From positions 43,338,001-43,402,000 of the forward strand of contig OZ024744.1 in assembly GCA_964016885.1 (NCBI GenBank): a DNA stretch of 64,000 nucleotides. The letters are read 5' to 3'. The notes under the pieces are model-generated. The model was not told where the DNA came from, searched no databases, and saw only the letters and a program-made list of their open reading frames with translations. Within the stretch, counting starts at the first letter, position 1; each line of letters starts with the position of its first letter. A program made the translations under genes and the position numbers. This stretch comes from Eledone cirrhosa. Taxonomy: Eukaryota. Shown here one piece after another: positions 329 through 63,997 of this stretch.

Positions 329-388
329 TCTTTTTAGTTGATTTTGGCTCCATTGAAGCAATGCGAGGGGACTGTGTAATATGGTCAC
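329..388 (-). CDS. Exon type A (60 nt, phase 1-1), first copy: xDHITQSPRIASMEPKSTKK
   Basis: Minus strand tatatattctag|GTGACCATATTACACAGTCCCCTCGCATTGCTTCAATGGAGCCAAAATCAACTAAAAAGA|gtaagtt. Confidence 0.8.
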
Positions 389-2009
389 CTAGAATATATA
401 AACAAAACATAGTAAACCTACATGTATATATACAAATAACATTACAAATACAGGAAACAGTTATTAGATTCATTATCTCTGATATATACATATATACACC
501 AGGTCCAAACATATATGGACCAAACTCCCACTGCCACTGTCATTTATATATATATATTTATATATAGTGAAAGGATTCAGGACGCCAACTACTTAGATCC
601 GTAAATATACATTTACTACTAAATTTTCTATAATCATGGCAACAGTCCTAATAAAGCAAATTCATTCTTACATACACACGCACAGAGATTGCACACACAC
701 AAACTCACACTCACACAAACACAAACAGAGCTCACACACACTCAAAAAAGCATCACCGGTGAAACACACCCAAACAGGTACACAATGAATTAATATACAA
801 CCCAATATACCTATATGTATACATCAACATACACATAATACCAACATCACTTCACTTATATATGTACATACAATTTTATTCAATAGGTCCACCTAACACA
901 TTACATAAACTTAGAATGTATACAAATATACAATATAACGTCAATTTGATATTAATGTTGAAACACGTGTAATAGTTTTCTGTACTAACTGGTAGGAATG
1001 GGTTTGAAATACAACTTACTTTCTTTTGATCCACCTCTTATGTGTGTGCCTGAGTCAGAGACAAGGATCTCTACAGGAGTCACACCTGGAAAAAATATAC
1101 AGAAGAAAAGAATAATAAAAGCTAGAAGGCTTTCTTGAGAAGAGTTTGTTGTCAAGTTGAAGAAAGGGTAGAATGAGTTGTCATTTGTTTAATCAACTAG
1201 ATCAAATTATACGGTTTGATCTCTCAAGGACATGCTTACTTTTCCCACAAATCTAAAACTTCCAAAAAGAGTAAAGTGTGGTTAGTCATATTTGGGATGT
1301 CTTGAATTATGAGAGAAACATTCTACAGTTTCCTACTGGTCCTTAAAATCAGATTTATATAGTGGTTTACCAAATATTTAGGGTACTGGCAGATATAGTG
1401 GAGAAGAGGATGTAGCATATGAACAATGAAGGGTGACAAGAAATTGTGAAGAACTGTAGGATAAAATCTTGATAAAGAACAGAATACTGATCTCTGAAAT
1501 AATTCAATCTAACTCAATGAATCTAGTGTAACATTTATCTTCTCATTTGAATCACATGTAATGTCATTCTTTCTCAGTTATCTCTGATAATGCCCTAAAA
1601 AAGTCTAGCTATACTTTTGTCATCATTAAAAGGTCTTTGAGGAAGTCAATAAAATGTTTATTCTGGATTATTTTATGGAGGTTGTAATAGAGAGTTTGAT
1701 ATTGTTGACTGAATTAAGTAGTTATAAATTTACTGTTGAAAACCTAAATAAGTTACTGAATAACTTATTACATGATGTTTAAATTATAACTTACGCTTTT
1801 GAGAAGTTTCAGGCTTCATTGCAGCACTGGGAGGGTACACGGTAATATGGTCACCTAGAATATATAAACAACATCATAGTAAACCTACATGTATATATAT
1901 AAAAAACATTACAAATACATGGAATCAGTTATTAGATTGATTATCTCTGATATATAGATATATACACCAGGTGCAAAGACATATGGACCAAACTCCCACT
2001 GTCCCTCGC

Positions 2010-2074
<65 letters not shown>

Positions 2075-3810: not shown

Positions 3811-3870
<60 letters not shown>

Positions 3871-5596: not shown

Positions 5597-5661
<65 letters not shown>

Positions 5662-7457: not shown

Positions 7458-10400
7458 GAGAGAATGGATAAATTACTGAATAACTTATTAGGTGATGTTC
7501 AAACTATAACTTACCCTTTTTAGTTGATTTTGCCTCCATTGAAGCAATGCGAGGGGACTGTGTAATATGGTCACCTAGAATATATAAACAAAATCATAGT
7601 AAACCTACATGTATATATACAAATAACATTACAAATACAGGAAACAGTTATTAGATTTATTATCTCTGATATATACATATATACACCAGGTCCAAACATA
7701 TATGGACCAAACTCCTACTGCCACTGCCATTTATATATATATATTTATATATAGTGAAAGGATTCAGGACGCCAACTACTTAGATCCGTAAATATACATT
7801 TACTACTAAATTTTCTATAATCATGGCAACAGTCCTAACAAAGCAAATATATTCTTACCTACTTGCACACTCACAAACTCACACTCACACAAACACAAAC
7901 AGGGCTCACACACACTCAAAAAAGCATCACCGGTGAAACACACCCAAACAGGTACACAATGAATTAATATACAACCCAATATACCTATATGTATACATCA
8001 ACATACACATAATACCAACATCACTTCACTTATATATGTACACACAATTTTATTCAATAGGTTCACCATACACATTACATAAACTTCCATGTATACAAAT
8101 ATACAATATAACGTAAATTTGATATTAATGTTGAAACATGTGTAATAGTTTTCTGTACTAACTGGTAGGAATGGGTTTGAAATACAACTTACTTTCTTTT
8201 GATCCACCTGTTATGTATGTGCCTGAGTCAGAGACAAGGATCTCTACAGGAGTCACACCTGGAAAAAAATATACAGAAGAAAAGAATAATAAAAGCTAGA
8301 AGGCTTTCTTGAGAAGAGTTTGTTGTCAAGTTGAAGAAAGGGTAGAATGAGTTGTCATTTGTTTAATCAACTAGATCAAATTATACGGTTTGTTCTCTCA
8401 AGGACATGCTTACTTTTCCCACAAATCTAAAACTTCCAAAAGGAGTAAAGTGTGGTTAGTCATATGTGGGCTGTCTTGAATTATGAGAGAAACATTCTAC
8501 AGTTTCCTACTGGTCCTTAAAATCAGATTTATATAGTGGTTTACCAAATATTTAGGGTACTGGCAGATGTAGTGGAGAAGAGGATGCAGCGTATGAACAA
8601 TGAAGGGTGACAAGAAATTGGGAAGAAATGTAGGACAAAGTTTTGATAAAGAAGAGAATACTGATCTCTGAAATAATTCAAACTACCTCAATGAATCTTG
8701 TGCAACATTTATCTTCTCATTTGAATCACATGTAATGTCATTCTTTCTCAGCTATCTCTGATAATGCCCTAAAAAAGTCTAGCTATACTTTTGTCATCAT
8801 TACAAGGTCTTTGAGGAAGTCAATAAAATGTTTATTCTGGATTATTTTATGGAGGTTGTAATACAGAGTTTGATATTGTTGACTGAATTAAGTAGTTATG
8901 AATTTACTGTTGAAAACCTAAATAAGTTACTGAATAACTTATTACATGATGTTTAAATTATAACTTACTCTTTTGAGTAGTTTCAGGCTTCATTGCAACA
9001 CTGGGAGGGTACACGGTAATATGGTCACCTAGAATATATAAACAACATCATAGTAAACCTACATGTATATATACAAATAACATTACAAATACATGGAATC
9101 AGTTATTAGATTGATTATCTCTGATAAATACATATATACAACAGGTGCAAACACATAGGGACCAAAGTCCCACTGTCCCTCGCATATATATATATATATA
9201 TATATATGAAGATAGACATAGAATATTCGAAAATATTCTGTATGTTTAAATAAACATTTTGAAGACCTAATCGCTATAGAATAGAATACGTCACGTATTA
9301 CAATTAGATTCTCGATAAAAGCAAGGGAAGTAACCTACGCGTTTCATTCTCATTAGAAATCTTCAGGATTACATATCCAGTGCTTTTATCGAGAATGACA
9401 CAGCTAGAGACTTATAGAATACTTAGCTGTGTACAGGAACTGGTTTGAAAGAGCGGTTGCCGGTCCGGCAGAAATTAGAAATTGGATTAAATGCTCTGAA
9501 ATAGCGATATATATGTGAAGATAGACATGATATGTGAAGATTTCTAATGAGAATGAAACGCGTAGGTTACTTCCCTTGCTTTTATCGAGAATCTAATTGT
9601 AATACGTGACGTATTCTATTCTATAGCGATTAGGTCTTCAAAATGTTTATTTAAACATACAGAATATTTTCGAATATTCTATGTCTATCTTCACATATAT
9701 ATCGCTATTTCAGAGCATTTAATCCATTATATATATATATATATTTATATATAGAGAGAATGGATAAATTACTGAATAACTTATTAGATGATGTTCAAAC
9801 TATAACTTACTCTTTTTAGTTGATTTTGGCTCCATTGAAGCAATGCGAGGGGACTGTGTAATATGGTCACCTAGAATATATAAACAAAATCATAGTAAAC
9901 CTACATGTATATATACAAATAACATTACAAATACAGGAAACAGTTATTAGATTCATTATCTCTGATATATACATATATACACCAGGTCCAAACATATATG
10001 GACCAAACTCCCACTGCCACTGCCATTTATATATATATATTTATATATAGTGAAAGGATTCAGGACGCCAACTACTTAGATCCGTAAATATACATTTACT
10101 ACTAAATTTTCTATAATCATGGCAACAGTCCTAATAAAGCAAATTCATTCTTACATACACACGCACAGAGATTGCACACACACAAACTCACACTCACACA
10201 AACACAAACAGAGCTCACACACACTCAAAAAAGCATCACCGGTGAAACACACCCAAACAGGTACACAATGAATTAATATACAACCCAATATACCTATATG
10301 TATACATCAACATACACATAATACCAACATCACTTCACTTATATATGTACATACAATTTTATTCAATAGGCCCACCTAACACATTACATAAACTTAGAAT

Positions 10401-23811: not shown

Positions 23812-25544
23812 TTTATATATAGAGAGAATAGATAAATTACTGAATAACTTATTAGATGATGTTCAAACTATAACTTACCCTTTTTAGTTGATTTTGCCTC
23901 CATTGAAGCAATGCGAGGGGACTGTAATATGGTCACCTAGAATATATAAACAAAATCATAGTAAACCTACATGTATATATACAAATAACATTACAAATAC
24001 AGGAAACAGTTATTAGATTCATTATCTCTGATATATACATATATACACCAGGTCCAAACATATATGGACCAAACTCCCACTGCCACTGCCATTTATATAT
24101 ATATATTTATATATAGTGAAAGGATTCAGGACGCCAACTACTTAGATCCGTAAATATACATTAACTACTAAATTTTCTATAATCATGGCAACAGTCCTAA
24201 TAAAGCAAATATATTCTTACCTACTTGCACACTCACAAACTCACACTCACACAAACACAAACAGGGCTCACACACACTCAAAAAAGCATCACCGGTGAAA
24301 CACACCCAAACAGGTACACAATGAATTAATATACAACCCAATATACCTATATGTATACATCAACATACACATAATACCAACATCACTTCACTTATATATG
24401 TACACACAATTTTATTCAATAGGTCCACCATACACATTACATAAACTTAGAATGTATACAAATATACAATATAACGTCAATTTGATATTAATGTTGAAAC
24501 TTGTGTAATAGTTTTCTGTACTAACTGGTAGGAATGGGTTTGAAATACAACTTACTTTCTTTTGATCCACCTCTTATGTATGTGCCTGAGTCAGAGACAA
24601 GGATCTCTACAGGAGTCACACCTGGAAAAAAATATACAGAAGAAAAGAATAATAAAAGCTAGAAGGCTTTCTTGAGAAGAGTTTGTTGTCAAGTTGAAGA
24701 AAGGGTAGAATGAGTTGTCATTTGTTTAATCAACTAGATCAAATTATACGGTTTGTTCTCTCAAGGACATGCTTACTTTTCCCACAAATCTAAAACTTCC
24801 AAAAGGAGTAAAGTGTGGTTAGTCATATGTGGGATGTCTTGAATTATGAGAGAAACATTCTACAGTTTCCTACTGGTCCTTAAAATCAGATTTATATAGT
24901 GGTTTACCAAATATTTAGGGTACTGGCAGATGTAGTGGAGAAGAGGATGCAGCGTATGAACAATGAAGGGTGACAAGAAATTTGGGAAGAAATGTAGGAC
25001 AAAGTTTTGATAAAGAAGAGAATACTGATCTCTGAAATAATTGAAACTACCTCAATGAATCTTGTGCAACATTTATCTTCTCATTTGAATCACATGTAAT
25101 GTCATTCTTTCTCAGCTATCTCTGATAATGCCCTAAAAAAGTCTAGCTATACTTTTGTCATCATTACAAGGTCTTTGAGGAAGTCAATAAAATGTTTATT
25201 CTGGATTATTTTATGGAGGTTGTAATAGAGAGTTTGATATTGTTGACTGAATTAAGTAGTTATAAATTTACTGTTGAAAACCTAAATAAGTTACTGAATA
25301 ACTTATTACATGATGTTTAAATTATAACTTACTCTTTTGAGAAGTTTCAGGCTTCATTGCAGCACTGGGAGGGTACACGGTAATATGGTCACCTAGAATA
25401 TATAAACAACATCATAGTAAACCTACATGTATATATATAAAAAACATTACAAATACATGGAATCAGTTATTAGATTGATTATCTCTGATATATAGATATA
25501 TACACCAGGTGCAAAGACATATGGACCAAACTCCCACTGTCCCT

Positions 25545-27376: not shown

Positions 27377-29118
27377 ATATATATATATTTTTATATATAG
27401 AGAGAATGGATAAATTACTGAATAACTTATTAGATGATGTTCAAACTATAACTTACCCTTTTTAGTTGATTTTGCCTCCATTGAAGCAATGCGAGGGGAC
27501 TGTAATATGGTCACCTAGAATATATAAACAAAATCATAGTAAACCTACATGTATATATACAAATAACATTACAAATACAGGAAACAGTTATTAGATTCAT
27601 TATCTCTGATATATACATATATACACCAGGTCCAAACATATATGGACCAAACTCCCACTGCCACTGCCATTTATATATATATATTTATATATAGTGAAAG
27701 GATTCAGGACGCCAACTACTTAGATCCGTAAATATACATTAACTACTAGATTTTCTATAATCATGGCAACAGTCCTAATAAAGCAAATATATTCTTACCT
27801 ACTTGCACACTCACAAACTCACACTCACACAAACACAAACAGGGCTCACACACACTCAAAAAAGCATCACCGGTGAAACACACCCAAACAGGTACACAAT
27901 GAATTAATATACAACCCAATATACCTATATACATCAACATACACATAATACCAACATCACTTCACTTATATATGTACACACAATTTTATTCAATAGGTCC
28001 ACCATACACATTACATAAACTTAGAATGTATACAAATATACAATATAACGTCAATTTGATATTAATGTTGAAACTTGTGTAATAGTTTTCTGTACTAACT
28101 GGTAGGAATGGGTTTGAAATACAACTTACTTTCTTTTGATCCACCTCTTATGTATGTGCCTGAGTCAGAGACAAGGATCTCTACAGGAGTCACACCTGGA
28201 AAAAAATATACAGAAGAAAAGAATAATAAAAGCTAGAAGGCTTTCTTGAGAAGAGTTTGTTGTCAAGTTGAAGAAAGGGTAGAATGAGTTGTCATTTGTT
28301 TAATCAACTAGATCAAATTATACGGTTTGTTCTCTCAAGGACATGCTTACTTTTCCCACAAATCTAAAACTTCCAAAAGGAGTAAAGTGTGGTTAGTCAT
28401 ATGTGGGATGTCTTGAATTATGAGAGAAACATTCTACAGTTTCCTACTGGTCCTTAAAATCAGATTTATATAGTGGTTTACCAAATATTTAGGGTACTGG
28501 CAGATGTAGTGGAGAAGAGGATGCAGCGTATGAACAATGAAGGGTGACAAGAAATTTGGGAAGAAATGTAGGACAAAGTTTTGATAAAGAAGAGAATACT
28601 GATCTCTGAAATAATTGAAACTACCTCAATGAATCTTGTGCAACATTTATCTTCTCATTGGAATCACATGTAATGTCATTCTTTCTCAGCTATCTCTGAT
28701 AATGCCCTAAAAAAGTCTAGCTATACTTTTGTCATCATTACAAGGTCTTTGAGGAAGTCAATAAAATGTTTATTCTGGATTATTTTATGGAGGTTGTAAT
28801 AGAGAGTTTGATATTGTTGACTGAATTAAGTAGTTATAAATTTACTGTTGAAAACCTAAATAAGTTACTGAATAACTTATTACATGATGTTTAAATTATA
28901 ACTTACGCTTTTGAGAAGTTTCAGGCTTCATTGCAGCACTGGGAGGGTACACGGTAATATGGTCACCTAGAATATATAAACAACATCATAGTAAACCTAC
29001 ATGTATATATATAAAAAACATTACAAATACATGGAATCAGTTATTAGATTGATTATCTCTGATATATAGATATATACACCAGGTGCAAAGACATATGGAC
29101 CAAACTCCCACTGTCCCT

Positions 29119-29176: not shown

Positions 29177-30914
29177 GAGAGAATGGATAAATTACTGAAT
29201 AACTTATTAGATGATGTTCAAACTATAACTTACCCTTTTTAGTTGATTTTGCCTCCATTGAAGCAATGCGAGGGGACTGTGTAATATGGTCACCTAGAAC
29301 ATATAAACAAAATCATAGTAAACCTACATGTATATATACAAATAACATTACAAATACAGGAAACAGTTATTAGATTTATTATCTCTGATATATACATATA
29401 TACACCAGGTCCAAACATATATGGACCAAACTCCCACTGCCACTGCCATTTATATATATATATTTATATATACTGAAAGGATTCAGGACGCCAACTACTT
29501 AGATCCGTAAATATACATTTACTACTAAATTTTCTATAATCATGGCAACAGTCCTAATAAAGCAAATTTATTCTTACATACACACACACAGAGATTGCAC
29601 ACTCACAAACTCACACTCACACAAACACAAACAGAGCTCACACACACTCAAAAAAGCATCACTGGTGAAACACACCCAAACAGGTACACAATGAATTAAT
29701 ATACAACCCAATATACCTATATGTATACATCAACATACACATAATACCAACATCACTTCACTTATATATGTACATACAATTTTATTCAATGGGTCCACCT
29801 AACACATTACATAAACTTAGGATGTATACAGATTTACAATATAACGTCAATTTGATATTAATGTTGAAACACGTGTAATAGTTTTCTGTACTAACTGGTA
29901 GGAATGGGTTTGAAATACAACTTACTTTCTTTTGATCCACCTCTTATGTGTGTGCCTGAGTCAGAGACAAGGATCTCTACAGGAGTCACACCTGGAAAAA
30001 TATACAGAAGAAAAGAATAATAAAAGCTAGAAGGCTTTCTTGAGAAGAGTTTGTTGTCAAGTTGAAGAAAGAGTAGAATGAGTTGTCATTTGTTTAATCA
30101 ACTAGATCAAATTATACGGTTTGATCTCTCAAGGACATGCTTACTTTTCCCACAAATCTAAAACTTCCAAAAAGAGTAAAGTGTGGTTAGTCATATTTGG
30201 GATGTCTTGAATTATGAGAGAAACATTCTACAGTTTCCTACTGGTCCTTAAAATCAGATTTATATAGTGGTTTACCAAATATTTAGGGTACTGGCAGATG
30301 CAGTGGAGAAGAGGATGCAGCATATGAACAATGAAGGGTGACAAGAAATTGTGAAGAACTGTAGGATAAAATCTTGATAAAGAAGAGAATACTGATCTCT
30401 GAAATAATTCAATCTAACTCAATGAATCTAGTGTAATATTTATCTTCTCATTTGAATCACATGTAATGTCATTCTTTCTCAGTTATCTCTGATAATGCCC
30501 TAAAAAAGTCTAGCTATACTTTTGTCATCATTAAAAGGTCTTTGAGGAAGTCAATAAAATGTTTATTCTGGATTATTTTATAGAGGTTGTAATAGAGAGT
30601 TTGATATTGTTGACTGAATTAAGTAGTTATAAATTTACTGTTGAAAACCTAAATAAGTTACTGAATAACTTATTACATGATGTTTAAATTATAACTTACG
30701 CTTTTGAGAAGTTTCAGGCTTCATTGCAGCACTGGGAGGGTACACGGTAATATGGTCACCTAGAATATATAAACAACATCATAGTAAACCTACATGTATA
30801 TATATAAAAAACATTACAAATACATGGAATCAGTTATTAGATTGATTATCTCTGATATATAGATATATACACCAGGTGCAAAGACATATGGACCAAACTC
30901 CCACTGTCCCTCAC

Positions 30915-30952
<38 letters not shown>

Positions 30953-33900
30953 ATATATATATACAATATTAAATAAATGGAAACTATATTTATAAAACCA
31001 TATATTTCATTATATATATTTCGGGGATATCATATTAACAATATGCTATGCCTTCCTCAGACAAAATACAATATAAACAGTTTTATAGATAAATAGATTC
31101 GACATACCGTTATAACACCGACTTCCATTTGAAGAGGTTTAAGCTGGCAGTGAAAAAATTTTACACAGAGAGAAAGAAAGAGAGAAAAAAGAAAGAAAGA
31201 CAGAAAACGAAGAAAAGGAAGAAAAAGAAGAAATGCATGGAACAAAAAAGAGAGATGGAAAGATAGATAGAGCGAAGAACTTCATGTAAAGAAACAGAAA
31301 GAGATATATATATAGAGAGAGAGAGGAAATAGAGATAGATACATATATATATAGAAAATTAGGTAGTGGGAGGTCATTTTGAGTAAATGTATCAATGATA
31401 CATTTATTTATTTATTTATTTATTTATTTAGCTCAAGTATTAATGTAAGGAAGATATATAGAGAGAGAAAAAATATAGAGAGAGGAAAAAATAGCGAGAG
31501 AAAAAAATTTAAAAATTAGCCAGATATATTCGAGGCGTAAAACCCTATGTTTTAATGTATTAGTATTTATAAAATTTACACTATATTGTAAATATCAGTA
31601 TTCCTGAATGAGACAAGTATCCATAGTGTGTGAAAATTAATTATCTTATGTTTTGTTTTAAAAAATTCATATGTTTATGTGACAGCTACAAACATCCATG
31701 CGAATCCACATGATTCACTCTGCAAACTCTAAGTTCACGGAAAACAATTTCAATGTGGTATAAAAATTTGAGCATACAAATATGTGTATTATTATTCCTG
31801 TCTTTACTCTACAAGATTATCTATCAAGCAGAAATAGAGAGCAGATTTCAATATACTAATAAAAATATATATCAGAAACAAAACTAAAAAAATAAAAATA
31901 TAAAAAGATAACAATAATAATAATAAATAAAATAAGTAATAATAAAATAGAAAACTAAAAAAAAAAATATTACGAAAGAATATTACATAATAAAAATATT
32001 ACATATTAAAAATATTACGTATTAAAAAATATTACGTATTAAAAATTTACATATTAAAGATATTAAAAATAAAAATAAAAAATAAAAAATAATTATAAAA
32101 TACTACAATAATAAAAAATAAAAATAAAAATAAACCACAAAGATCAACCCTTCAAAGTTAATTGACAATATATTGCCAAGTTCATTACAAGACAAAGCCA
32201 AAAAATTATCTATCAAATCACATCTAGCAAAGATCATTTCAAAAAGTTTATGATGTCCAAATTGGTCTACATATGTTCTTATATTTAATATAGAAGTTTA
32301 TCTAGTGTAAGGTTTATTCAAAAAATTTGGAGCATCAGCTTTTAGGGTAGCTTAATTTTTCATGAGGAATGTTTAAATAAAAATAAAATAAAAATAAACA
32401 ATAAAAAAGAATAAAAAGAAGGAATCAAAAATTTAGGAATCAAAAATTTATCGGCTAGTTTCCCATATAAATATAAATCAAACTAAATATACTACATTTT
32501 AAATTTAAATTTATATTTAAACGTTGAGTTTAATCTATGTTTGCAACAACTGAATAAATTTGTCCGTAGGTTAAGGGAATTTTTAGATTTTAGTATAAAG
32601 AATATCTCCTCTGCGCAGAGGTCACATGTCTCAGAGGATGAATTAAAAGGAATCCCTCTTGAGACTATATTCCAAGCCATCGAATATCTAACGTTATCTA
32701 GCTTAAGTTGCCAGAGTACGCCTGATAGTGCCGTTGAAGATTTTTTACTTGGATCTGTGAAAGAATTCTTGTGGTTATTATAGCGAAGTTTAAATTCCGT
32801 CGATGTGGAACCGACGTAGTTAAAAGAATTAGAGTCAGTATTAACATTACAATTGTATACTACATTTTTAACTAAGCAGTTGTTATTTAACGGACATTTA
32901 GATCTATCTCTACAGTTACATTTGTTAACTTGTATATTATTTATGCTATTATCACTAGGTTTTAAGTTCCTATTATTTATTCTATTAATATTTTGTGCTA
33001 AATTTTTGGTGGATGAGTAGGTTAATTTAATTGTATGCCTATTGAAAATTGAGTGATACCTATGTGTTCTAGGGAAGCGATTATCAAGAGCTTTGAAAAA
33101 TAATTTAGCGATGTGGGTTTTAATGTTTAGTGATAAAGGGGGGGGCAAACCAAATTATGTTCCTAGTTCTATTTCTTTTTTGGCCTTTGGAATTATTGTA
33201 ATGCTTTCTATTATAGTTGTTAATGTTGTTGCCGTAATTAAAAAAGTTGTTACTTTGTTTAGTTTGTCTATCATTATCTATGTACACAATCTTATCAGCA
33301 TATCCTGCCCTAGCTAATGCTTCATTATAGTATTGGGCCTTTTCGTCGAAAATCTTTCTATTCGACGAGATCCTAGATATACGTTTTTGAACTGAGTTTA
33401 CTATAGTGTTTTTGACAGATCTGGGGTGGTTAGAGTTAAAGTTGACATAGTTTAAGTTTTCATTCAACTTGTGAAAAGGATAGTGGAGACATGTGTTGAG
33501 ATTTAATGTTATATCTAGGAAATTGACTATTCTATGGTTGTTCTCAATTTCTATTTTAAGGTTAAAGTAATTAAAAAATTTTGTAATTTGTTTACATTTT
33601 CTATTTAGTTCAGGGTTATTATTATTAATAAGTAAAAGCATGTCATCCCTATATAAACCTCCGGTAGTACCAGGTATTTTCCTATGTAGCGAATTGATTA
33701 AAAATAAGCCCACAAGGTCAGTTACCTGAGCTGAGTCGGAAGATCCCATAGTTATGTCAAAATTGCTATCTCTATCTGCTCTGGTCCATAATTTGTCATT
33801 AAATTCTATCAAAGTTTTCCTAGCCGATAATATAATATGCATTTCTTTGCTAGTTAGGTCAGTATGTTTGAATGCGTAATTTAGTGCCTTATTTAGTAGA

Positions 33901-36900
33901 CTAGGGGTAATAGAAGAATAATAGTTAGCTATATCAAGTTGAATAAACCTATTATTATTGTTATATTTAATTTGCCTAAACCACTCAACAACCTCTCCAG
34001 TTCCCTTCCACAAGCTCAGGTTAGATACACAATCCAAGTTCTTAATTTGCTGTATCACCCTGTCAAGAATGTTTTTGCTTAATTTGCCCAGGTCCGATTT
34101 TGAAGGTGCGATCAATCTAACTGGCAGGTCATTTTCAAAATTCCTCTTGTGGTCCTTCATATTGATCTTCGGTTTCCTGGGCATGAAAGGTTGTGTTCTG
34201 TTCTCAATTTCCAACTCGTGCATTATACAAGATGCTTCGACATTCATTTTCTCAAGTTCGGCCTTATCTGCTACCTTGTACTTTTTCCTCAGCTCTTTCA
34301 GTATGAGGCCATTATACATGTCTTTCCGCACTCCATAGAGGTTGTTGGTCTTGTCAGATTTCACCAAGATCTTCTCAGTTTTCTCTAAGCTCTCAATGTT
34401 ATCCTTAATGCCTTTCAGATATTCCTGGCCTTTGAAGTTTCTCTTGAATTTGACCCCTTGTATGATAGAAATTATATCGTTTTCAAAGTCAGATAAAAGT
34501 TTGTTAGGGGGTGGATTTCTTTTAGATTTGAAAACTTTGTTTAAGTCCGAGACATTTTCGTCTGCATTAGATTTATCAAAGTGGAATGCACGCCACCTGA
34601 TTCTCCTTATAAAAGAGTCAGATTTATCTATTAATTGTTTTATAAAGTCTTTGTTTCTAGGTAGAGGTATGTCTTTTAGAGAGGAAGTAATCTTAAAGAA
34701 TTCCATTTTTCCAGTTATAATATAAAGCGCTCAACAGTATTGGAGCAAGATACATGGAAAGTTATATTTAAAATTGTTGGGTTACAACTAGTAAATATTT
34801 ATAACTGATATAAAAGCACTCGACAAATATTTGGAGTATATTTACAATATTAGATAAATGGAAACTATATTTATAAAACCATATTTATTTCATTATATAT
34901 ATTTCGGGGATATCATATTAACAATATGCTATGCCTTCCTCAGACAAAATACAATATAAACAGTTTTATAGATAAATAGATTCGACATACCGTTATAACA
35001 CCGACTTCCATTTGAAGAGGTTTAAGCTGGCAGTGAAAAAATTTTACACAGAGAGAAAGAAAGAGAGAAAAAAGAAAGAAAGACAGAAAACGAAGAAAAG
35101 GAAGAAAAAGAAGAAATGCATGGAACAAAAAAGAGAGATGGAAAGATAGATAGAGCGAAGAACTTCATGTAAAGAAACAGAAAGAGATATATATATATAT
35201 AGAGAGAGAGGAAATAGAGATAGATACATATATATATAGAAAATTAGGTAGTGGGAGGTCATTTTGAGTAAATGTATCAATGATACATTTATTTATTTAT
35301 TTATTTATTTAGCTCAAGTATTAATGTAAGAGAGATATATAGAGAGAGAAAAAATATAGAGAGAGGAAAAAATAGCGAGAGAAAAAAATTTAAAAAATAG
35401 CCAGATATATTCGAGGCGTAAAACCCTATGTTTTAATGTATTAGTATTTATAAAACTTACACTATATTGTAAATATCAGTATTCCTGAATGAGACAAGTA
35501 TCCATAGTGTGTGAAAATTTTTTCACTGCCAGCTTAAACCTCTTCAAATGGAAGTCGGTGTTATAACGGTATGTCGAATCTATTTATCTATAAAACTGTT
35601 TATATTGTATTTTGTCTGAGGAAGGCATAGCATATTGTTAATATGATATCCCCGAAATATATATAATGAAATAAATATGGTTTTATAAATATAGTTTCCA
35701 TTTATTTAATATTGTAAATATACTCCAAATATTTGTCGAGTGCTTTTATATCAGTTATAAATATTTACTAGTTGTAACCCAACAATTTTAAATATAACTT
35801 TCCATATATATATTTATATATAGAGAGAATGGATAAATTACTGAATAACTTATTAGATGATGTTCAAACTATAACTTACCCTTTTTAGTTGATTTTGCCT
35901 CCATTGAAGCAATGCGAGGGGACTGTGTAATATGGTCACCTAGAATATATAAACAAAATCATAGTAAACCTACATGTATATATACAAATAACATTACAAA
36001 TACAGGAAACAGTTATTAGATTTATTATCTCTGATATATACATATATACACCAGGTCCAAACATATATGGACCAAACTCCCACTGCCACTGCCATTTATA
36101 TATATATATTTATATATAGTGAAAGGATTCAGGACGCCAACTACTTAGATCCGTAAATATACATTTACTACTAAATTTTCTATAATCATGGCAACAGTCC
36201 TAATAAAGCAAATATATTCTTACCTACTTGCACACTCACAAACTCACACTCACACAAACACAAACAGGGCTCACACACACTCAAAAAAGCATCACCGGTG
36301 AAACACACCCAAACAGGTACACAATGAATTAATATACAACCCAATATACCTATATGTATACATCAACATACACATAATACCAACATCACTTCACTTATAT
36401 ATGTACACACAATTTTATTCAATAGGTCCACCATACACATTACATAAACTTAGAATGTATACAAATATACAATATAACGTCAATTTGATATTAATGTTGA
36501 AACATGTGTAATAGTTTTCTGTACTAACTGGTAGGAATGGGTTTGAAATACAACTTACTTTCTTTTGATCCACCTCTTATGTGTGTGCCTGAGTCAGAGA
36601 CAAGGATCTCTACAGGAGTCACACCTGGAAAAAAATATACAGAAGAAAAGAATAATAAAAGCTAGAAGGCTTTCTTGAGAAGAGTTTGTTGTCAAGTTGA
36701 AGAAAGGGTAGAATGAGTTGTCATTTGTTTAATCAACTAGATCAAATTATACGGTTTGTTCTCTCAAGGACATGCTTACTTTTCCCACAAATCTAAAACT
36801 TCCAAAAGGAGTAAAGTGTGGTTAGTCATATGTGGGATGTCTTGAATTATGAGAGAAACATTCTACAGTTTCCTACTGGTCCTTAAAATCAGATTTATAT

Positions 36901-37598: not shown

Positions 37599-39350
37599 AT
37601 ATATTTATATATAGAGAGAATGGATAAATTACTGAATAACTTATTAGATGATGTTCAAACTATAACTTACCCTTTTTAGTTGATTTTGCCTCCATTGAAG
37701 CAATGCGAGGGGACTGTGTAATATGGTCACCTAGAATATATAAACAAAATCATAGTAAACCTACATGTATATATACAAATAACATTACAAATACAGGAAA
37801 CAGATATTAGATTCATTATCTCTGATATATACATATATACACCAGGTCCAAACATATATGGACCAAACTCCCACTGCCACTGCCATTTATATATATATAT
37901 TTATATATAGTGAAAGGATTCAGGACGCCAACTGCTTAGATCTGTAAATATACATTTACTACTAAATTTTCTATAATCATGGCAACAGTCCTAATAAAGC
38001 AAATTTATTCTTACATACACACACACAGAGATTGCACACTCACAAACTCACACTCACACAAACACAAACAAGGCGCACACACACTCAAAAAAGCATCACC
38101 GGTGAAACACACCCAAACAGGTACACAATGAATTAATATACAACCCAATATACCTATATGTATACATCAACATACACATAATACCAACATCACTTCACTT
38201 ATATATGTACACACAATTTTATTCAATGGGTCCACCTAACACATTACATAAACTTAGGATGTATACAGATTTACAATATAACGTCAATTTGATATTAATG
38301 TTGAAACACGTGTAATAGTTTTCTGTACTAACTGGTAGGAATCGGTTTGAAATACAACTTACTTTCTTTTGATCCACCTCTTATGTGTGTGCCTGAGTCA
38401 GAGACAAGGATCTCTACAGGAGTCACACCTGGAAAAATATACAGAAGAAAAGAATAATAAAAGCTAGAAGGCTTTCTTGAGAAGAGTTTGTTGTCAAGTT
38501 GAAGAAAGGGTAGAATGAGTTGTCATTTGTTTAATCAACTAGATCAAATTATACGGTTTGATCTCTCAAGGACATGCTTACTTTTCCCACAAATCTAAAA
38601 CTTCCAAAAAGAGTAAAGTGTGGTTAGTCATATTTGGGATGTCTTGAATTATGAGAGAAACATTCTACAGTTTCCTACTGGTCCTTAAAATCAGATTTAT
38701 ATAGTGGTTTACCAAATATTTAGGGTACTGGCAGATGTAGTGGAGAAGAGGATGCAGCATATGAACAATGAAGTGTGACAAGAAATTGTGAAGAACTGTA
38801 GGATAAAATCTTGATAAAGAAGAGAATACTGATCTCTGAAATAATTCAATCTAACTCAATGAATCTAGTGTAACATTTATCTTCTCATTTGAATCACATG
38901 TAATGTCATTCTTTCTCAGTTATCTCTGATAATGCCCTAAAAAAGTCTAGCTATACTTTTGTCATCATTAAAAGGTCTTTGAGGAAGTCAATAAAATGTT
39001 TATTCTGGATTATTTTATGGAGGTTGTAATAGAGAGTTTGATATTGTTGACTGAATTAAGTAGTTATAAATTTACTGTTGAAAACCTAAATAAGTTACTG
39101 AATAACTTATTACATGATGTTTAAATTATAACTTCCGCTTTTGAGAAGTTTCAGGCTTCATTGCAGCACTGGGAGGGTACACGGTAATATGGTCACCTAG
39201 AATATATAAACAACATCATAGTAAACCTACATGTATATATATAAAAAACATTACAAATACATGGAATCAGTTATTAGATTGATTATCTCTGATATATAGA
39301 TATATACACCAGGTGCAAAGACATATGGACCAAACTCCCACTGTCCCTCG

Positions 39351-39412: not shown

Positions 39413-41139
39413 GAGAGAATGGATAAATTACTGAATAACTTATTAGATGATGTTCAAACTATAACTTACCCTTTTTAGTTGATTTTTGCCTCCATTGAAG
39501 CAATGCGAGGGGACTGTGTAATATGGTCACCTAGAATATATAAACAAAATCATAGTAAACCTACATGTATATATACAAATAACATTACAAATACAGGAAA
39601 CAGTTATTAGATTTATTATCTCTGATATATACATATATACACCAGGTCCAAACATATATGGACCAAACTCCCACTGCCACTGCCATTTATATATATATAT
39701 TTATATATAGTGAAAGGATTCAGGACGCCAACTACTTAGATCCGTAAATATACATTTACTACTAAATTTTCTATAATCATGGCAACAGTCCTAATAAAGC
39801 AAATATATTCTTACCTACTTGCACACTCACAAACTCACACTCACACAAACACAAACAGGGCTCACACACACTAAAAAAAGCATCACCGGTGAAACACACC
39901 GAGACAGGTACACAATGAATTAATATAAACCCAATATACATATATGTATACATCAACATACACATAATACCAACATCACTTCACTTATATATGTACACAC
40001 AATTTTATTCAATAGGTCCACCATACACATTACATAAACTTAGAATGTATACAAATATACAATATAACGTCAATTTGATATTAATGTTGAAACATGTGTA
40101 ATAGTTTTCTGTACTAACTGGTAGGAATGGGTTTGAAATACAACTTACTTTCTTTTGATCCACCTCTTATGTGTGTGCCCGAGTCAGAGACAAGGATCTC
40201 TACAGGAGTCACACCTGGAAAAAAATATACAGAAGAAAAGAATAATAAAAGCTAGAAGGCTTTCTTGAGAAGAGTTTGTTGTCAAGTTGAAGAAAGGGTA
40301 GAATGAGTTGTCATTTGTTTAATCAACTAGATCAAATTATACGGTTTGTTCTCTCAAGGACATGCTTACTTTTCCCACAAATCTAAAACTTCCAAAAGGA
40401 GTAAAGTGTGGTTAGTCATATGTGGGATGTCTTGAATTATGAGAGAAACATTCTACATTATCCTAATGGTCCTTAAAATCAGATTTATATAGTGGTTTAC
40501 CAAATATTTAGGGTACTGGCAGATGTAGTGGAGAAGAGGATGCAGCATATGAACAATGAAGGGTGACAAGAAATTGTGAAGAACTGTAGGTTAAAATTTT
40601 GATAATGAAGAGAAGACTGATCTCTGAAATAATTCAATCTTACTCAATGAATCTAATGTAACATTTATCTTCTCATTTGAATCACATGTAATGTCATTCT
40701 TTCTCAGCTATCTCTGATAATGCCCTAAAAAAGTCTAACTATACTTTTAACATCATTACAAGGTCTTTGAGGAAGTCAATAAAATGTTTATTCTGGATTA
40801 TTTTATGGAGGTTGTAATACAGAGTTTGATATTGTTGACTGAATTAAGTAGTTATGAATTTACTGTTGAAAACCTAAATAAGTTACTGAATAACTTATTA
40901 CATGATGTTTAAATTATAACTTACGCTTTTGAGAAGTTTCAGGCTTCATTGCAGCACTGGGAGGGTACATGGTAATATGGTCACCTAGAATATATAAACA
41001 ACATCATAGTAAACCTACATGTATATATACAAATAACATTACAAATACATGGAATCAGTTATTAGATTGATTATCTCTGATAAATACATATCTACAACAG
41101 GTGCAAACACATATGGACCAAACTCCCACTGTCCCTCGC

Positions 41140-60606: not shown

Positions 60607-60654
<48 letters not shown>

Positions 60655-62371
60655 GAGAGAGAATGGATAAATTACTGAATAACTTATTAGATGATGTTGA
60701 AACTATAACTTACCCTTATTAGTTGATTTTGCCTCCATTGAAGCAATGCAAGGGGACTGTGTAATATGGTCACCTAGAATATATAAACAAAATCATAGTA
60801 AACCTACATGTATATATACAAATAACATTACAAATACAGGAAACAGTTATTAGATTTATTATCTCTGATATATACATATATACACCAGGTCCAAACATAT
60901 ATGGACCAAACTCCTACTGCCACTGCCATTTATATATATATATTTATATATAGTGAAAGGATTCAGGACGCCAACTACTTAGAACCGTAAATATACATTT
61001 ACTACTAAATTTTCTATAATCATGGCAACAGTCCTAATAAAGCAAATTTATTCTTACATACACACATACAGAGATTGCACACTCACAAACTCACACAAAC
61101 ACAAACAGGGCTCACACACACTCAAAAAAGCATCACCAGTGAAACACACCCAAACAGGTACACATTTAATTAATATACAACCCAATATACCTATATGTAT
61201 ACATCAACATACACATAATACCAACATCACTTCACTTATATATGTACACACAATTTTATTCAATGGGTCCACCTAACATATTACATAAACTTAGAATGTA
61301 TACAGATATACAATATAACGTCAATTTGATATTAATGTTGAAACACGTGTAATAGTTTTCTGCACTAACTGGTAGGAATCGGTTTGAAATACAACTTACT
61401 TTCTTTTGATCCACCTCTTATGTGTGTGCCTGAGTCAGAGACAAGGATCTCTACAGGAGTCACACCTGGAAAAAATATACAGAAGAAAAGAATAATAAAA
61501 GCTAGAAGGCTTTCTTGAGAAGAGTTTGTTGTCAAGTTGAAGAAAGGGTAGAATGAGTTGTCATTTGTTTAATCAACTAGATCAAATTATACGGTTTGTT
61601 CTCTCAAGGACATGCTTACTTTTCCCACAAATCTAAAACTTCCAAAAGGAGTAAAGTGTGGTTAGTCTTGAATTATGAGAGAAACATTCTACAGTTTCCT
61701 ACTGGTCCTTAAAATCAGATTTATATAGTGGTTTACCAAATATTTAGGGTACTGGCAGATGTAGTGGAGAGGTGGATGCAGCATATGAACAATGAAGGGT
61801 GACAAGAAATTGTGAAGAACTGTAGGATAAAATTTTGATAAAGAAGAGAATACTGATCTCTGAAATAATTCAATCTAACTCAATGAATCTAGTGTAACAT
61901 TTATATTCTCATTTGAATCACATGTAATGTCATTCTTTCTCAGCTATCTTTGATAATGCCCTAAAAAAGTCTAGCTATACTTTTGTCATCATTAAAAGGT
62001 CTTTGAGAAAGTCAATAAAATGTTTATTCTGGATTATTTTATGGAGGTTGTAATAGAGAGTTTGATATTGTTGACTGAATTAAGTAGTTATAAATTTACT
62101 GTTGAAAACCTAAATAAGTTACTGAATAACTTATTACATGATGTTTAAATTATAACTTACGCTTTTGAGAAGTTTCAGGCTTCATTGCAGCACTGGGAGG
62201 GTACACGGTAATATGGTCACCTAGAATATATAAACAACATCATAGTAAACCTACATGTATATATATAAAAAACATTACAAATAATGGAATCAGTTATTAG
62301 ATTGATTATCTCTGATATATAGATATATACACCAGGTGCAAACACATATGGACCAAACTCCCACTGTCCCT

Positions 62372-62413
<42 letters not shown>

Positions 62414-63997
62414 GAGAGAATGGATAAATTACTGAATAACTTATTATATGATGTTCAAATTATAACTTACCCTTTTTAGTTGATTTTGCCTCCATTGAAG
62501 CAATGCGAGGGGACTGTGTAATATGGCCACCTAGAATATATAAACAAAATCATAGTAAACCTACATGTATATATACAAATAACATTTTAAATACAGGAAA
62601 CAGTTATTAGATTCATTATCTCTGATATATACATATATACACCAGGTCCAAACATATATGGACCAAACTCCTACTGCCACTGCCATTTATATATATATAT
62701 TTATATATAGTGAAAGGATTCAGGACGCCAACTACTTAGATCCGTAAATATACATTTACTACTAAATTTTCTATAATCATGGCAACAGTCCTAATAAAGC
62801 AAATTTATTCTTACATACACACATACAGAGATTGCACACTCACAAACTCACACTCACACAAACACAAACAGGGCTCACACACACTCAAAAAAGCATCACC
62901 GGTGAAACACACCCAAACAGGTACACATTGAATTAATATACAACCCAATATACCTATATGTATACATCAACATACACATAATACCAACATCACTTCACTT
63001 ATATATGTACACACAATTTTATTCAATGGGTCCACCTAACACATTACATAAACTTAGAATGTATACAGATATACAATATAACGTCAATTTGATATTAATG
63101 TTGAAACACGTGTAATAGTTTTCTGCACTAACTGGTAGGAATCGGTTTGAAATACAACTTACTTTCTTTTGATCCACCTCTTATGTGTGTGCCTGAGTCA
63201 GAGACAAGGATCTCTACAGGAGTCACACCTGGAAAAAATATACAGAAGAAAAGAATAATAAAAGCTAGAAGGCTTTCTTGAGAAGAGTTTGTTGTCAAGT
63301 TGAAGAAAGGGTAGAATGAGTTGTCATTTGTTTAATCAACTAGATCAAATTATACGGTTTGTTCTCTCAAGGACATGCATAATTTTCCCACAAATCTAAA
63401 ACTTCCAAAAGGAGTAAAGTGTGGTTAGTCATATGTGGGATGTCTTGAATTATGAGAGAAACATTCTACATTATCCTAATGGTCCTTAAAATCAGATTTA
63501 TATAGTGGTTTACCAAATATTTAGGGTACTGGCAGATGTAGTGGAGAAGAGGATGCAGCATATGAACAATGAAGGGTGACAAGAAATTGTGAAGAACTGT
63601 AGGATAAAATTTTGATAAAGAAGAGAATACTGATCTCTGAAATAATCCAATCTTACTCAATGAATCTAATGTAACATTTATCTTCTCATTTGAATCACAT
63701 GTAATGTCATTCTTTCTCAGCTATCTCTGATAATGCCCTAAAAAAGTCTAGCTATACTTTTGTCATCATTACAAGGTCTTTGAGAAAGTCAATAAAATGT
63801 TTATTCTGGATTATTTTATGGAGGTTGTAATAGAGAGTTTGATATTGTTGACTGAATTAAGTAGTTATGAATTTACTGTTGAAAACCTAAATAAGTTACT
63901 GAATAACTTATTACATGATGTTTAAATTATAACTTACGCTTTTGAGAAGTTTCAGGCTTCATTGCAGCACTGGGAGGGTACACGGTAATATGGTCAC
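329..63997 (-). CDS. Internal part of a putative multi-exon gene encoding a 62-aa tandem-repeat Ser/Thr/Pro-rich protein (3 exons per monomer, 96 exon copies in window; start and stop outside window)
   Basis: Each monomer has three minus-strand segments of 60/66/60 nt between a pyrimidine-rich ...TAG/CAG acceptor and a GTAAGT donor. All are open in phase 1. Joined A-C-B they read SDHITQSPRIASME(A/P)KSTKK-(G/S)DHITVYPPSAAMKPET(S/T)QK-(R/S)VTPVEILVSDSGTHIRGGSKE. There is no transcript evidence; the call rests on splice signals and frame symmetry. Confidence 0.8.
1020..1085 (-). CDS. Exon type B (66 nt, phase 1-1), first copy: xVTPVEILVSDSGTHIRGGSKE
   Basis: Minus strand gtatattttttccag|GTGTGACTCCTGTAGAGATCCTTGTCTCTGACTCAGGCACACACATAAGAGGTGGATCAAAAGAAA|gtaagtt. 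Confidence 0.8.
1795..1854 (-). CDS. Exon type C (60 nt, phase 1-1; paralogue of exon A), first copy: xDHITVYPPSAAMKPETSQK
   Basis: Minus strand tatatattctag|GTGACCATATTACCGTGTACCCTCCCAGTGCTGCAATGAAGCCTGAAACTTCTCAAAAGC|gtaagtt. Phase 0 and phase 2 readings contain TGA, which fixes the frame. Confidence 0.8.
2010..2073. repeat. Variable-length (TA)n microsatellite, one per monomer (representative copy); target of both retroelements
   Basis: Lies between CCCACTGTCCCTCGC and GAGAGAATGG in every monomer; length varies roughly 30-65 bp. Confidence 0.95.
9207..9726 (-). mobile_element. ~520 bp non-autonomous, non-coding PLE-type/retrozyme-like insertion with 5' inversion, in (TA)n
   Basis: Absent from most monomers and flanked by (TA)n. 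9207-9365 is the reverse complement of 9535-9693, and 9483-9515 of 9694-9726. TGAAGATAGACAT recurs at 9207 and 9516 (309-nt period). Contains a hammerhead core. Confidence 0.85.
9330..9372 (-). ncRNA. Minimal type I hammerhead ribozyme
   Basis: Minus strand GTAATC-CTGAAGA-TTTCTAATGAGAAT-GAAA-CGCG-TA^GGTTAC. It has the CUGANGA and GAAA boxes, stem I GUAAUC/GGUUAC, stem II UUCU-AAUG-AGAA and a palindromic CGCG stem III typical of PLE minimal hammerheads. It is enclosed by a 16-bp perfect stem (9308-9323/9381-9396). Confidence 0.88.
13311..13830 (-). mobile_element. Copy of the ~520 bp fold-back hammerhead element (hammerhead at 13434-13476)
   Basis: Same sequence and junctions as 9207-9726 apart from a few SNPs. 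Confidence 0.88.
17399..17918 (-). mobile_element. Copy of the ~520 bp fold-back hammerhead element (hammerhead at 17522-17564)
   Basis: Same sequence and junctions as 13311-13830. Confidence 0.88.
21490..22009 (-). mobile_element. Copy of the ~520 bp fold-back hammerhead element (hammerhead at 21613-21655)
   Basis: Same sequence and junctions; G>C at 21491. Confidence 0.88.
30962..31638 (-). repeat. 3' pseudo-LTR of the PLE
   Basis: Near-identical direct repeat of 34843-35519. Confidence 0.92.
31000..31074 (-). ncRNA. Type I hammerhead ribozyme motif in 3' pseudo-LTR
   Basis: Minus strand ...TATTTTGT-CTGAGGA-(AGGCATAGCATATTGTTAATATGATATCCCC)-GAAA-TATATA-TA^ATGAAATA. Confidence 0.7.
31855..32135. 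repeat. A-rich low-complexity tract with short (AAAATATTACRTATT)-like repeats in the PLE 3' UTR
   Basis: Runs of AAAAAT/AATAA and about five degenerate AAAATATTAC(G/A)TATT copies at ~31965-32065. Confidence 0.75.
32492..33148 (-). CDS. PLE linker + GIY-YIG endonuclease (C-terminal part of the same ORF, after the frameshift)
   Basis: CNCRDRSKCPLNNNCL Cys linker, VVY...YVGST (GIY-YIG variant), FKLRYNNH, CDLCAEE, LN, CCKH. The annotated start is a TTG beside the C8 run, not a real start. Confidence 0.92.
   Translation of the reverse strand: MPPPLSLNIKTHIAKLFFKALDNRFPRTHRYHSIFNRHTIKLTYSSTKNLAQNINRINNRNLKPSDNSINNIQVNKCNCRDRSKCPLNNNCLVKNVVYNCNVNTDSNSFNYVGSTSTEFKLRYNNHKNSFTDPSKKSSTALSGVLWQLKLDNVRYSMAWNIVSRGIPFNSSSETCDLCAEEIFFILKSKNSLNLRTNLFSCCKHRLNSTFKYKFKFKM
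33120..34706 (-). CDS. PLE reverse transcriptase (N-terminal 528 aa of a frameshifted single ORF)
   Basis: Motif A FIQLDIANYYSSIT, motif B' FDITMGSSDSAQVTDLVG, catalytic GLYRDDML, VNFLDITLNL, thumb YVNFNSNHP. Ends at IIWFAPP, where the frame breaks. Confidence 0.95.
   Translation of the reverse strand: MEFFKITSSLKDIPLPRNKDFIKQLIDKSDSFIRRIRWRAFHFDKSNADENVSDLNKVFKSKRNPPPNKLLSDFENDIISIIQGVKFKRNFKGQEYLKGIKDNIESLEKTEKILVKSDKTNNLYGVRKDMYNGLILKELRKKYKVADKAELEKMNVEASCIMHELEIENRTQPFMPRKPKINMKDHKRNFENDLPVRLIAPSKSDLGKLSKNILDRVIQQIKNLDCVSNLSLWKGTGEVVEWFRQIKYNNNNRFIQLDIANYYSSITPSLLNKALNYAFKHTDLTSKEMHIILSARKTLIEFNDKLWTRADRDSNFDITMGSSDSAQVTDLVGLFLINSLHRKIPGTTGGLYRDDMLLLINNNNPELNRKCKQITKFFNYFNLKIEIENNHRIVNFLDITLNLNTCLHYPFHKLNENLNYVNFNSNHPRSVKNTIVNSVQKRISRISSNRKIFDEKAQYYNEALARAGYADKIVYIDNDRQTKQSNNFFNYGNNINNYNRKHYNNSKGQKRNRTRNIIWFAPPFITKH
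34843..35519 (-). repeat. 5' pseudo-LTR of the PLE
   Basis: Direct repeat of 30962-31638, upstream of the RT ATG at 34706. Confidence 0.92.
34881..34957 (-). ncRNA. Type I hammerhead ribozyme motif in 5' pseudo-LTR
   Basis: Same core. Stem I AUAUU(G)UAUUUUGU pairs with AUGAAAUAAAUAU; stem II contains the CATATT-GTT-AATATG hairpin; palindromic AUAU loop III. Confidence 0.72.
35514..35805 (+). repeat. Inverted 5' segment of the PLE (reverse complement of 34754-35045)
   Basis: AAAATTTTTTCACTGCCAGC...ATAACTTTCCAT is the reverse complement of ATGGAAAGTTAT...GCTGGCAGTGAAAAAATTTT. AAAATT microhomology at the junction. Confidence 0.93.
35602..35678 (+). ncRNA. Type I hammerhead ribozyme motif in the inverted PLE segment
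   Basis: CTGAGGA at 35616-35622, GAAA at 35654-35657, predicted cleavage after A35665. Confidence 0.7.
63938..63997 (-). CDS. Exon type C, most 5' exon copy visible in the window
   Basis: Same 60-nt sequence with tag| acceptor at 63998-64000 and gtaagt donor at 63932-63937. Confidence 0.75.

Follow-up and report, generated by a model that had tools for sequence, protein, structure and literature searches.

A 64,000-nt stretch of Eledone cirrhosa DNA (the window) looks like a satellite, and it raises the question of whether such a tandem array can form the inner part of a very large gene, as an earlier note had proposed. An ungapped scan of the window found 96 mini-exon copies on the minus strand (32 each of types A, B and C) and none on the plus strand, arranged in strict B-C-A order. 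Exons A and B are 60 nt long and exon C is 66 nt, and each type is preceded by AG and followed by GTAAGT. Phase 1 is the sole reading open in A, B and C together; the other two frames are both closed in C and in B, and one of the two is closed in A. Joined through their junction codons, the three exons give a 62-residue repeat with 20 Ser, Thr or Pro residues (32%, by hand count) and a composition rich in P, K, E, S and T. This agrees with the earlier note in the count of tandem 60/66/60-nt segments, the positions of the first copies (Table 1), the shared open phase with exon C closed in phases 0 and 2, and the 62-aa repeat with its 20 S/T/P residues, while the claim that every segment has an AG acceptor, a GTAAGT donor and a length divisible by three holds except for 4 of the 96 copies, which are not intact. 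Since chance alone would give ~0.6 GTAAGT per strand of a 1.8-kb monomer (from base counts) and the A, B and C exon types are mutually related, three donors per monomer are by themselves only modest evidence.

Both ends of the gene model were located outside the window. The start exon lies 9.3 kb upstream of the array and a tiny stop exon lies downstream, with 224 kb from start to stop; both are unique, intact and in phase with the array. Symmetric mini-exons carry 17,214 of the ~17,440 coding nt, and 278 of the 286 array copies are exon-plus-intron units with the same phase on both sides and an exon length that is a multiple of 3. These findings support the view that the window lies inside a very large gene built from amplified exon-plus-intron modules, for which unequal crossing-over is the probable route. 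Of the flanking exons that had been suggested as a check, unique 5' and 3' terminal exons were found and signal-peptide and transmembrane exons were not. The earlier note had held that a lack of both spliced reads and unique flanking exons would speak against a gene; because unique 5' and 3' exons exist, half of that objection is removed. It had missed the ~16 paralogous loci and the splice-intact frameshifted exons in the window copy. Ab initio prediction of splice sites in the flanks gave too much noise to be usable, and the end introns may hold further unique exons. The entries listed from the 1,020 flank ORFs looked like retroelement and simple-repeat frames.

Table 1. Positions of the array, its terminal exons and its irregular copies (plain numbers are window positions)
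Feature	Position	Strand	Description
Whole exon array	C28:43,195,437-43,408,604	-	213 kb, 286 copies, 278 intact
Start exon	C28:43,417,911-43,418,130	-	220 nt from the ATG to a donor in phase 1; 73 residues, Cys14 and Cys28; outside window
Last exon	acceptor at C28:43,194,172	-	phase-1 stop after two codons; AATAAA ~200 nt on; outside window
Window part of array	329..63997	-	32 modules of ~1.8 kb, each holding B, C and A exons of 60, 66 and 60 nt; phase 1-1 throughout
Exon type A, example copy	329..388	-	ungapped scan
Exon type C, example copy	1020..1085	-	ungapped scan
Exon type B, example copy	1795..1854	-	duplicate of A type; upstream intron near-identical
A copy, 61 nt	39470..39530	-	splice sites intact; first frame-breaking exon from 5' end; 47th array copy
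B copy without GT donor	39137..39196	-	GT lost; not intact
A copy, 58 nt	27457..27514	-	frame-breaking, splice sites intact
A copy, 58 nt	23879..23936	-	same lesion as copy at 27457
Long A-to-B intron, 5,120 nt	30760..35879	-	retroelement inside; 687-nt direct repeats; ORFs of 536 and 220 aa

The genome holds 17 copies of the start exon and 18 stop-exon loci. On two chromosomes, C28 and C18, these pair up on the same strand 16 times, with 51-224 kb between start and stop, and mini-exons were detected between 14 of the 16 pairs. With loci of this size the family totals well over 1 megabase, and such loci would be lost to repeat masking and ORF finders. Subfamily 2 exons keep the 60/66-nt lengths, the phase and the splice sites despite 48% and 37% base differences, and the start exons of the subfamilies differ by an in-frame 6-nt indel. 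Among the eight completely covered loci, four have no splice-intact frame-breaker among their detected exons.

Selection on the reading frame is evident. Among 223 distinct splice-intact 60-nt exons of the family, we found 3 stop-changing steps against 15.8 +/- 3.7 under neutrality (0 of 200 simulations gave as few); the other two frames gave 27 and 41. The 47 distinct 66-nt exons had 0 against 3.8 expected (3 of 200 simulations). The start exon is constrained at the residue level as well, with pN 0.11-0.13 and pS 0.21-0.26 between subfamilies and pN 0.025 and pS 0.16 within subfamily 2. Residues of the repeat exons are not conserved (pN/pS 1.15 and 1.46); the first ratio exceeds all 40 neutral runs (maximum 1.06) and the second lies within them (maximum 1.58). 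Exon divergence (0.48 and 0.37) is about twofold that of the nearest intron flanks (0.18-0.25). Since synonymous divergence is high as well (pS 0.55 and 0.29) and only one ratio goes beyond neutral, we do not read this excess as positive selection, and intron homogenisation or constraint on splice signals explains it equally well. Together, these findings make a real protein-coding gene family very likely, because stops are purged while residues change freely, although unconserved repeat residues also fit a weak function.

The predicted protein has a structured head and a long tail. Structure prediction placed helices at residues 3-25 and 29-43 (pLDDT 87-94), with low confidence after about residue 50. 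Residues 1-43 carry a net charge of +11 to +13 in two arginine/lysine clusters, and the head has two or three cysteines and a hydrophobic moment of 2.0-2.2 that was matched by 0-1 of 1000 shuffles. The head is thus modelled as a basic amphipathic helix with cysteines; a helix of this kind would fit a coiled coil, a calmodulin site or a nuclear signal just as well. The start exon shows no signal peptide by hydropathy (best 9-residue value 0.8-0.9) and by its strongly basic charge, and we found no membrane span or folded domain in the gene model. Nor was a conserved C-terminal domain found, as the last exon adds only 2 to ~21 residues. The tail is likely disordered, judging from its composition as counted by hand.

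Searches for relatives returned little. The A/B exon profile found no animal protein among 1.84 billion protein representatives, and its sole match, a bacterial-looking repeat protein, shares one short word with it, which we attribute to chance. The start exon had no match in the ESM Atlas or in a 5.8-billion sequence set, where searching of long proteins is weak and limited to 2,000 residues, and nothing in Pfam above the cut-off (best E 0.027). Contigs from three runs of one sample, of unstated kind, cover introns and exons alike at window positions 300-1900 with no joint at an exon edge; they therefore behave as DNA and may be the source of the assembly itself.

We tentatively favor, without rating it as high as even, a non-secreted protein that would dock by its head on a membrane's inner face, with a very long, likely disordered repeat tail that would act as a spacer or brush. 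About 280 frame-neutral mini-exons between the start and stop exons would be spliced into one long message, in an array probably enlarged by crossing-over between misaligned modules; as all modules are phase 1-1, the reading frame survives when modules are gained or lost or a splice site dies. Selection would act on frame, length and bulk composition and would spare the exact residues. The cysteine-bearing basic head is predicted to be S-acylated and to dock on the membrane, and the tail would be a length-variable, phosphorylatable spacer with ~185 Ser/Thr-Pro sites predicted to be phosphorylated. A basic amphipathic helix with a nearby cysteine, as predicted here, is what a membrane anchor would be expected to have, and according to an extract of 10.1101/2021.05.19.444897, ANKRD26 has been shown to be anchored in the membrane by an amphipathic helix with basic residues at its N-terminus. 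This explanation is weakened because the window copy holds broken exons with intact splice sites, 2 of the 9 start-exon copies inspected are broken, and no homologue was found. As the mode of action of the family, a membrane-anchored spacer is a plausible but tentative proposal, and that the window copy itself makes a protein of several thousand residues is, if anything, slightly more doubtful.

It is somewhat unlikely, though worth weighing, that the family is real and that the window copy is decaying, its 1.8-kb module being a runaway neutral satellite with no giant protein. Across the 286 copies, AG and GT are kept in three frameshifted exons and one stop-bearing exon, four further copies have dead splice sites, and duplication has spread the 58-nt lesion to a second copy. 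A retroelement, presumably Penelope-like from its motifs, sits inside the array, start exons at the neighboring loci at 46.47 and 28.78 Mb are broken, and orphan array fragments lie at 45.47-45.58 Mb. If the broken exons were always included, the product of the window locus would end near residue 1,020 of ~5,800 and its mRNA would be liable to decay. On the other hand, the start exon, the last exon and all but 8 of the 286 copies are intact, skipping could in principle bypass broken cassette exons, and the loci at 54.2-54.4 and 126.7 Mb have 113 and 71 intact exons with no frame-breaker detected.

About as unlikely is a nuclear role for the same family, with the head as a segment for nuclear import and nucleic-acid binding and the mildly basic tail with its Ser/Thr-Pro sites as a phospho-regulated scaffold of chromatin or germ cells, similar to sperm basic proteins. 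The two arginine/lysine clusters and the high charge of the head fit this role, germline genes typically show rapid change of repeats and recent duplication, and subfamily 2 repeats look more basic. However, import does not need a strong, conserved hydrophobic face bearing cysteine, and the subfamily 1 repeat has a charge of only +2 per 62 residues (hand count).

A bolder form of the membrane-tethered proposal is an octopod family of giant intracellular repeat proteins, with hundreds of cassette exons under positive selection and combinatorial splicing, that would serve as a cytoplasm-facing, MEG-like generator of diversity and be masked as satellite in annotations. We consider this rather improbable; if true, sperm or haemocytes are possible sites.

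Less probable again is that the head is a coiled-coil or calmodulin-type helix for binding a partner and that the tail serves as a cytoskeletal linker, elastic or multivalent, comparable to titin PEVK or neurofilament tails. The long amphipathic helix, the one-exon-per-repeat design with skippable units and a tail rich in P, K, E, S and T would suit a linker, but a spring requires a second, C-terminal anchor, and 2-21 residues hardly offer one. The PEVK region of titin is flanked by Ig and fibronectin domains, whereas the ends of our gene model were found without Ig, fibronectin or rod exons in a non-exhaustive domain check.

The mucin-like product toward which the earlier note leaned is not borne out in the secreted sense, and a secreted or cell-surface mucin is now very improbable. 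Its S/T/P-rich tandem repeat, at 20 of 62 residues, is modest for a mucin, although the gene design is that of SmPoMuc in Schistosoma mansoni as far as described in an extract of PMC2576457. Against a mucin, the start exon lacks a hydrophobic signal stretch, the last exon has almost no residues, no membrane span or conserved C-terminal domain was found, and one subfamily (the C18/126.7-Mb type) has an in-frame stop four codons upstream of the ATG. Scarcely credible, too, is a non-coding satellite or transposon-derived repeat with splice-like signals by chance, which would fit the missing homologue and the single donor per monomer that chance predicts but not the frame-specific purge of stops, the exon lengths kept at 37-48% divergence or the start and stop exons paired at 16 loci.

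The architecture itself is already known from SmPoMuc, NBPF and Tetrahymena LRR arrays, while the family and its scale look new. As described in parts of PMC2576457, SmPoMuc shares a clustered multigene family, a ~1-kb repeated unit of exon and introns with microsatellites, and concerted evolution; it differs in that its genes encode a signal peptide of 22 residues and carry, besides a 27-nt exon present in at most ~20 repeats, 13 further exons. In our family a signal peptide is lacking, each unit has two or three exons, as many as 286 copies occur and there is hardly any C-terminal part. The same extract describes spider silk genes whose introns are homogenised more than their exons, as in the array family. 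A mucin-like gene design and a non-secreted, anchor-like head are thus combined in one family. NBPF/Olduvai (DUF1220) genes are, from portions of 10.1101/2021.07.06.450945 and PMC2588610, likewise lineage-specific, spread by segmental duplication and open-ended addition of ~1.5-kb exon-bearing units, with a disordered, phosphorylatable product; in Olduvai, a doublet of one small and one large exon encodes 65 residues, compared to 20-22 residues per exon here, and no sequence likeness was found by Pfam on the start exon alone or by the A/B profile among animal proteins. Schistosome MEGs share small symmetric exons as most of the coding sequence and a dN/dS that is lower in the leader than in the variable part, where it is close to 1 or higher; in the available part of PMC4350168, all have signal peptides and they are short, flatworm-confined and shown to be alternatively spliced, whereas the array genome has a molluscan haemocyanin. 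With ANKRD26/POTE the likeness is a functional analogy only, in the basic amphipathic N-terminal helix (membrane insertion shown for ANKRD26) and the cysteine-rich N-terminus of POTE (10.1101/2021.05.19.444897, in extract), since our family has neither ankyrin repeats nor homology to them.

The family is not described in the octopus and cephalopod literature on repeats, exons and novel families that was searched, in which subscription journals were little covered; an extract of PMC9068888 points to squid gene arrays without names in its Supplementary Table 4. The unique start and last exons offer primers or probes for expression, tissue, exon skipping, copy number and other cephalopods. Tetrahymena LRR arrays, in the source material at hand, also consist of exons of one length and one phase, which repeat masking hides and whose number differs between paralogues through ectopic recombination; their exons are in phase 2, number 1-51 per gene and encode folded leucine-rich repeats with conserved leucines, whereas the array family is in phase 1 and has no conserved hydrophobic core. 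Among the systems compared, the 286 repeat exons of the window locus exceed the ~20 of SmPoMuc and the at most 51 of Tetrahymena LRR genes.

An ungapped scan of the window with the three first copies as queries recovered the 96 tandem minus-strand mini-exons that the earlier note had described (32 A, 32 B and 32 C), in strictly B-C-A order within a tandem array of a ~1.8-kb unit that makes up the window, and it returned no plus-strand copies of A, B or C there. The lengths proposed for these exons (60, 66 and 60 nt), the AG before them and the GTAAGT after them held up as well, and phase 1 is the only reading open in all three types. Damage affects 4 of the 96 copies: one A copy is 61 nt long, two others are 58 nt, and a B copy has no GT. 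Since GTAAGT is expected by chance about 0.6 times per monomer strand (arithmetic from base composition), this exon-like pattern by itself is suggestive and not proof of coding. A higher-order repeat of ~4.09 kb runs between window positions 8969 and 23938. It comprises two modules, the A-to-B intron of one being longer by ~520 nt, and variant exons recur in register across it, which shows block duplication. One A-to-B intron holds a retroelement (window 30760-35879), presumably Penelope-like; it has direct repeats of 687 nt, an inverted copy of 302 nt and two ORFs, of 536 and 220 aa.

The window occupies C28:43,338,001-43,402,000. We traced the array limits in 200 kb on either side of it, and the unique 5' and 3' exons that the earlier note had suggested seeking in the flanks were both present, as an ATG start exon and a short last exon.

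Features of the gene model containing the window's array, on contig C28
Feature	Coordinates	Strand	Details
Start exon	C28:43,417,911-43,418,130	minus	220 nt, ATG to phase-1 donor, 9.3 kb upstream of array
Whole array	C28:43,408,604 to 43,195,437	minus	286 copies
Last exon	acceptor C28:43,194,172	minus	A-type-like acceptor; phase-1 stop after two codons

Intact copies number 278 of 286, the rest being frameshifted (3), interrupted by a stop (1) or without AG or GT (4). Both array edges include older copies that have diverged, one of them having lost 6 nt in frame. The intact exons total 17,214 nt, and the product would be ~5,800 residues if every one is used. Two reverse CCAAT-like boxes (L002:6230-6200 of a C28 piece, minus strand), ~75-100 nt upstream of the start-exon ATG, are possibly promoter elements. 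About 100 nt of the last exon's 3' part (L035:5990-5890 of another C28 piece) recur inverted 2.8 kb downstream (L035:3110-3010). A 200-base N run lies at C28:43,466,437, ~48 kb beyond the start exon on its upstream side, and the gene itself contains none.

Across the 3.0-Gb genome, we found 17 copies of the start exon (nine inspected: seven intact, one with a stop, one with a frameshift) and 18 last-exon loci plus one fragment; in each of the 11 last exons read, the phase-1 frame runs for 2 to about 21 codons before a stop. A same-strand last exon lies 51-224 kb from 16 of the 17 start exons, in pairs on C28 and C18; two last exons and one start exon, the latter on a small contig, have no partner. 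Mini-exons lie between the two ends in 14 of the 16 pairs, these 14 being the pairs examined. Besides paralogues of the window's type (subfamily 1), subfamily 2 has two-exon modules whose 60- and 66-nt exons are very unlike those of the window. Its loci at C18 8.28-8.35 Mb, C28 126.7-126.8 Mb and C28 4.67 Mb carry one more phase-1 exon, divergent and 63 or 51 nt long, which belongs to none of the A, B and C types. Locus flanks are ~95% identical and collinear for tens of kb. At C28:45,141,000-45,298,000, two near-identical paralogues stand head to head with ~37 kb between them, forming an inverted duplication; at C28:44,197,000-44,234,500, an array has a last exon, with no start exon found; and at C28:45,469,000-45,577,000, pieces of array run in both directions, neither a start nor a last exon turned up close by, and the locus is probably an orphan copy that has been rearranged. 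Three sequencing runs compared with the array behave as DNA. The 47th exon of the window's array is frameshifted with intact splice sites, and the protein would stop near residue 1,020 if this exon were always included. Among the eight loci read end to end, which hold 24 to 281 exon copies each (motif-based counts, with C undercounted), four lack any splice-intact frame-breaking lesion among detected exons, and the family therefore looks healthier than the copy at the window locus.

Judged from sequence, the array is real and very probably coding. We compared stop changes along a minimum-spanning tree of distinct splice-intact exons, a rough proxy for history that ignores gene conversion, with 200 neutral simulations. 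The 223 distinct 60-nt exons showed 3 stop-gain or stop-loss steps vs 15.8 ± 3.7 under neutrality (minimum 6), with 27 and 41 in the other two frames, and the 47 distinct 66-nt exons showed 0 vs 3.8; by this test, stop depletion is large and frame-specific. Residues vary freely, with mini-exon pN/pS of 1.15 and 1.46 vs neutral means of 0.86 and 0.98. Between the two subfamilies, 48% and 37% of exon sites differ, against 18-25% in the adjacent intron flanks, and 20 diverged A/B copies show an identity of 0.81 within the exon and 0.89 over the preceding 60 nt. We do not claim positive selection, because synonymous sites are elevated too and concerted evolution is known to leave introns more uniform than exons (PMC2576457, in the part available). 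The accessible part of PMC3906575 reports exons changing faster than introns in primate segmental duplications. For the start exon, pN/pS of about 0.4-0.6 between subfamilies and 0.16 within subfamily 2 indicates purifying selection.

The earlier note had pictured satellite-style amplification of a gene for a probably disordered or mucin-like protein. A coding array growing by whole exon-plus-intron modules is the most likely reading; a mucin-like, secreted product is not supported, as a signal peptide is absent from the 73-residue head encoded by the start exon, where hydropathy over 9 residues reaches 0.8-0.9 at best. Unequal crossing-over would duplicate the modules and segmental duplication would spread whole genes; because every module is phase 1-1, the frame survives when modules are gained or lost or a splice site dies, and selection would remove stops while tolerating residue change. 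Such a protein would pair an anchor with a long flexible tail. Head residues 1-43 carry a net charge of +11 to +13, followed by an acidic linker, and AlphaFold models of eight paralogues place helices at 3-25 and 29-43, with the rest at low confidence. A strongly amphipathic face spans residues 9-27, matched by 0-1 of 1000 shuffles; Cys14 and Cys28 are invariant, and subfamily 2 has Cys26. The 62-residue repeat (counted by hand) has 20 S/T/P, 9 K/R, 7 D/E, one aromatic and two Ser/Thr-Pro sites and lacks Cys, a composition of the disordered type. We tentatively favor a head predicted to dock at the cytosolic membrane face through a basic, acylated amphipathic helix and to bear a phosphorylatable spacer; a basic amphipathic helix serves as membrane anchor in the ANKRD26 N-terminus (10.1101/2021.05.19.444897, as far as its available part goes). 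The head may instead have a nuclear role or may bind a partner. Searches with the start exon and with an A/B exon profile found no relatives in large protein sets, nor did the start exon in the ESM Atlas or, above the cut-offs, in Pfam.

The titin PEVK region is one further comparison case. According to the available portions of the sources, the gene design of the window's array is already known from SmPoMuc (PMC2576457), NBPF (10.1101/2021.07.06.450945, PMC2588610), Tetrahymena 90-bp LRR arrays (PMC6564038) and MEGs (PMC4350168); what was accessible of PMC2812944 adds little. The mini-exon family belongs to none of these systems, titin PEVK included. Unnamed tandem families exist in cephalopod genomes, as excerpts of PMC9068888 report, and we found no description of the mini-exon family in the literature searched, the supplement of that paper lying outside the search. 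The family looks new, its likely growth mechanism is a known one, its scale is unusual and its non-secreted head unexpected. Molluscan haemocyanin, with about seven units per cluster, a SINE and the microsatellites suggest an octopus genome. Several haemocyanin gene copies lie elsewhere, at C1:173.74-173.91 Mb, C26:21.93-22.02 Mb and C27:61-68 kb; they mostly have seven units, and two carry an extra decayed unit.
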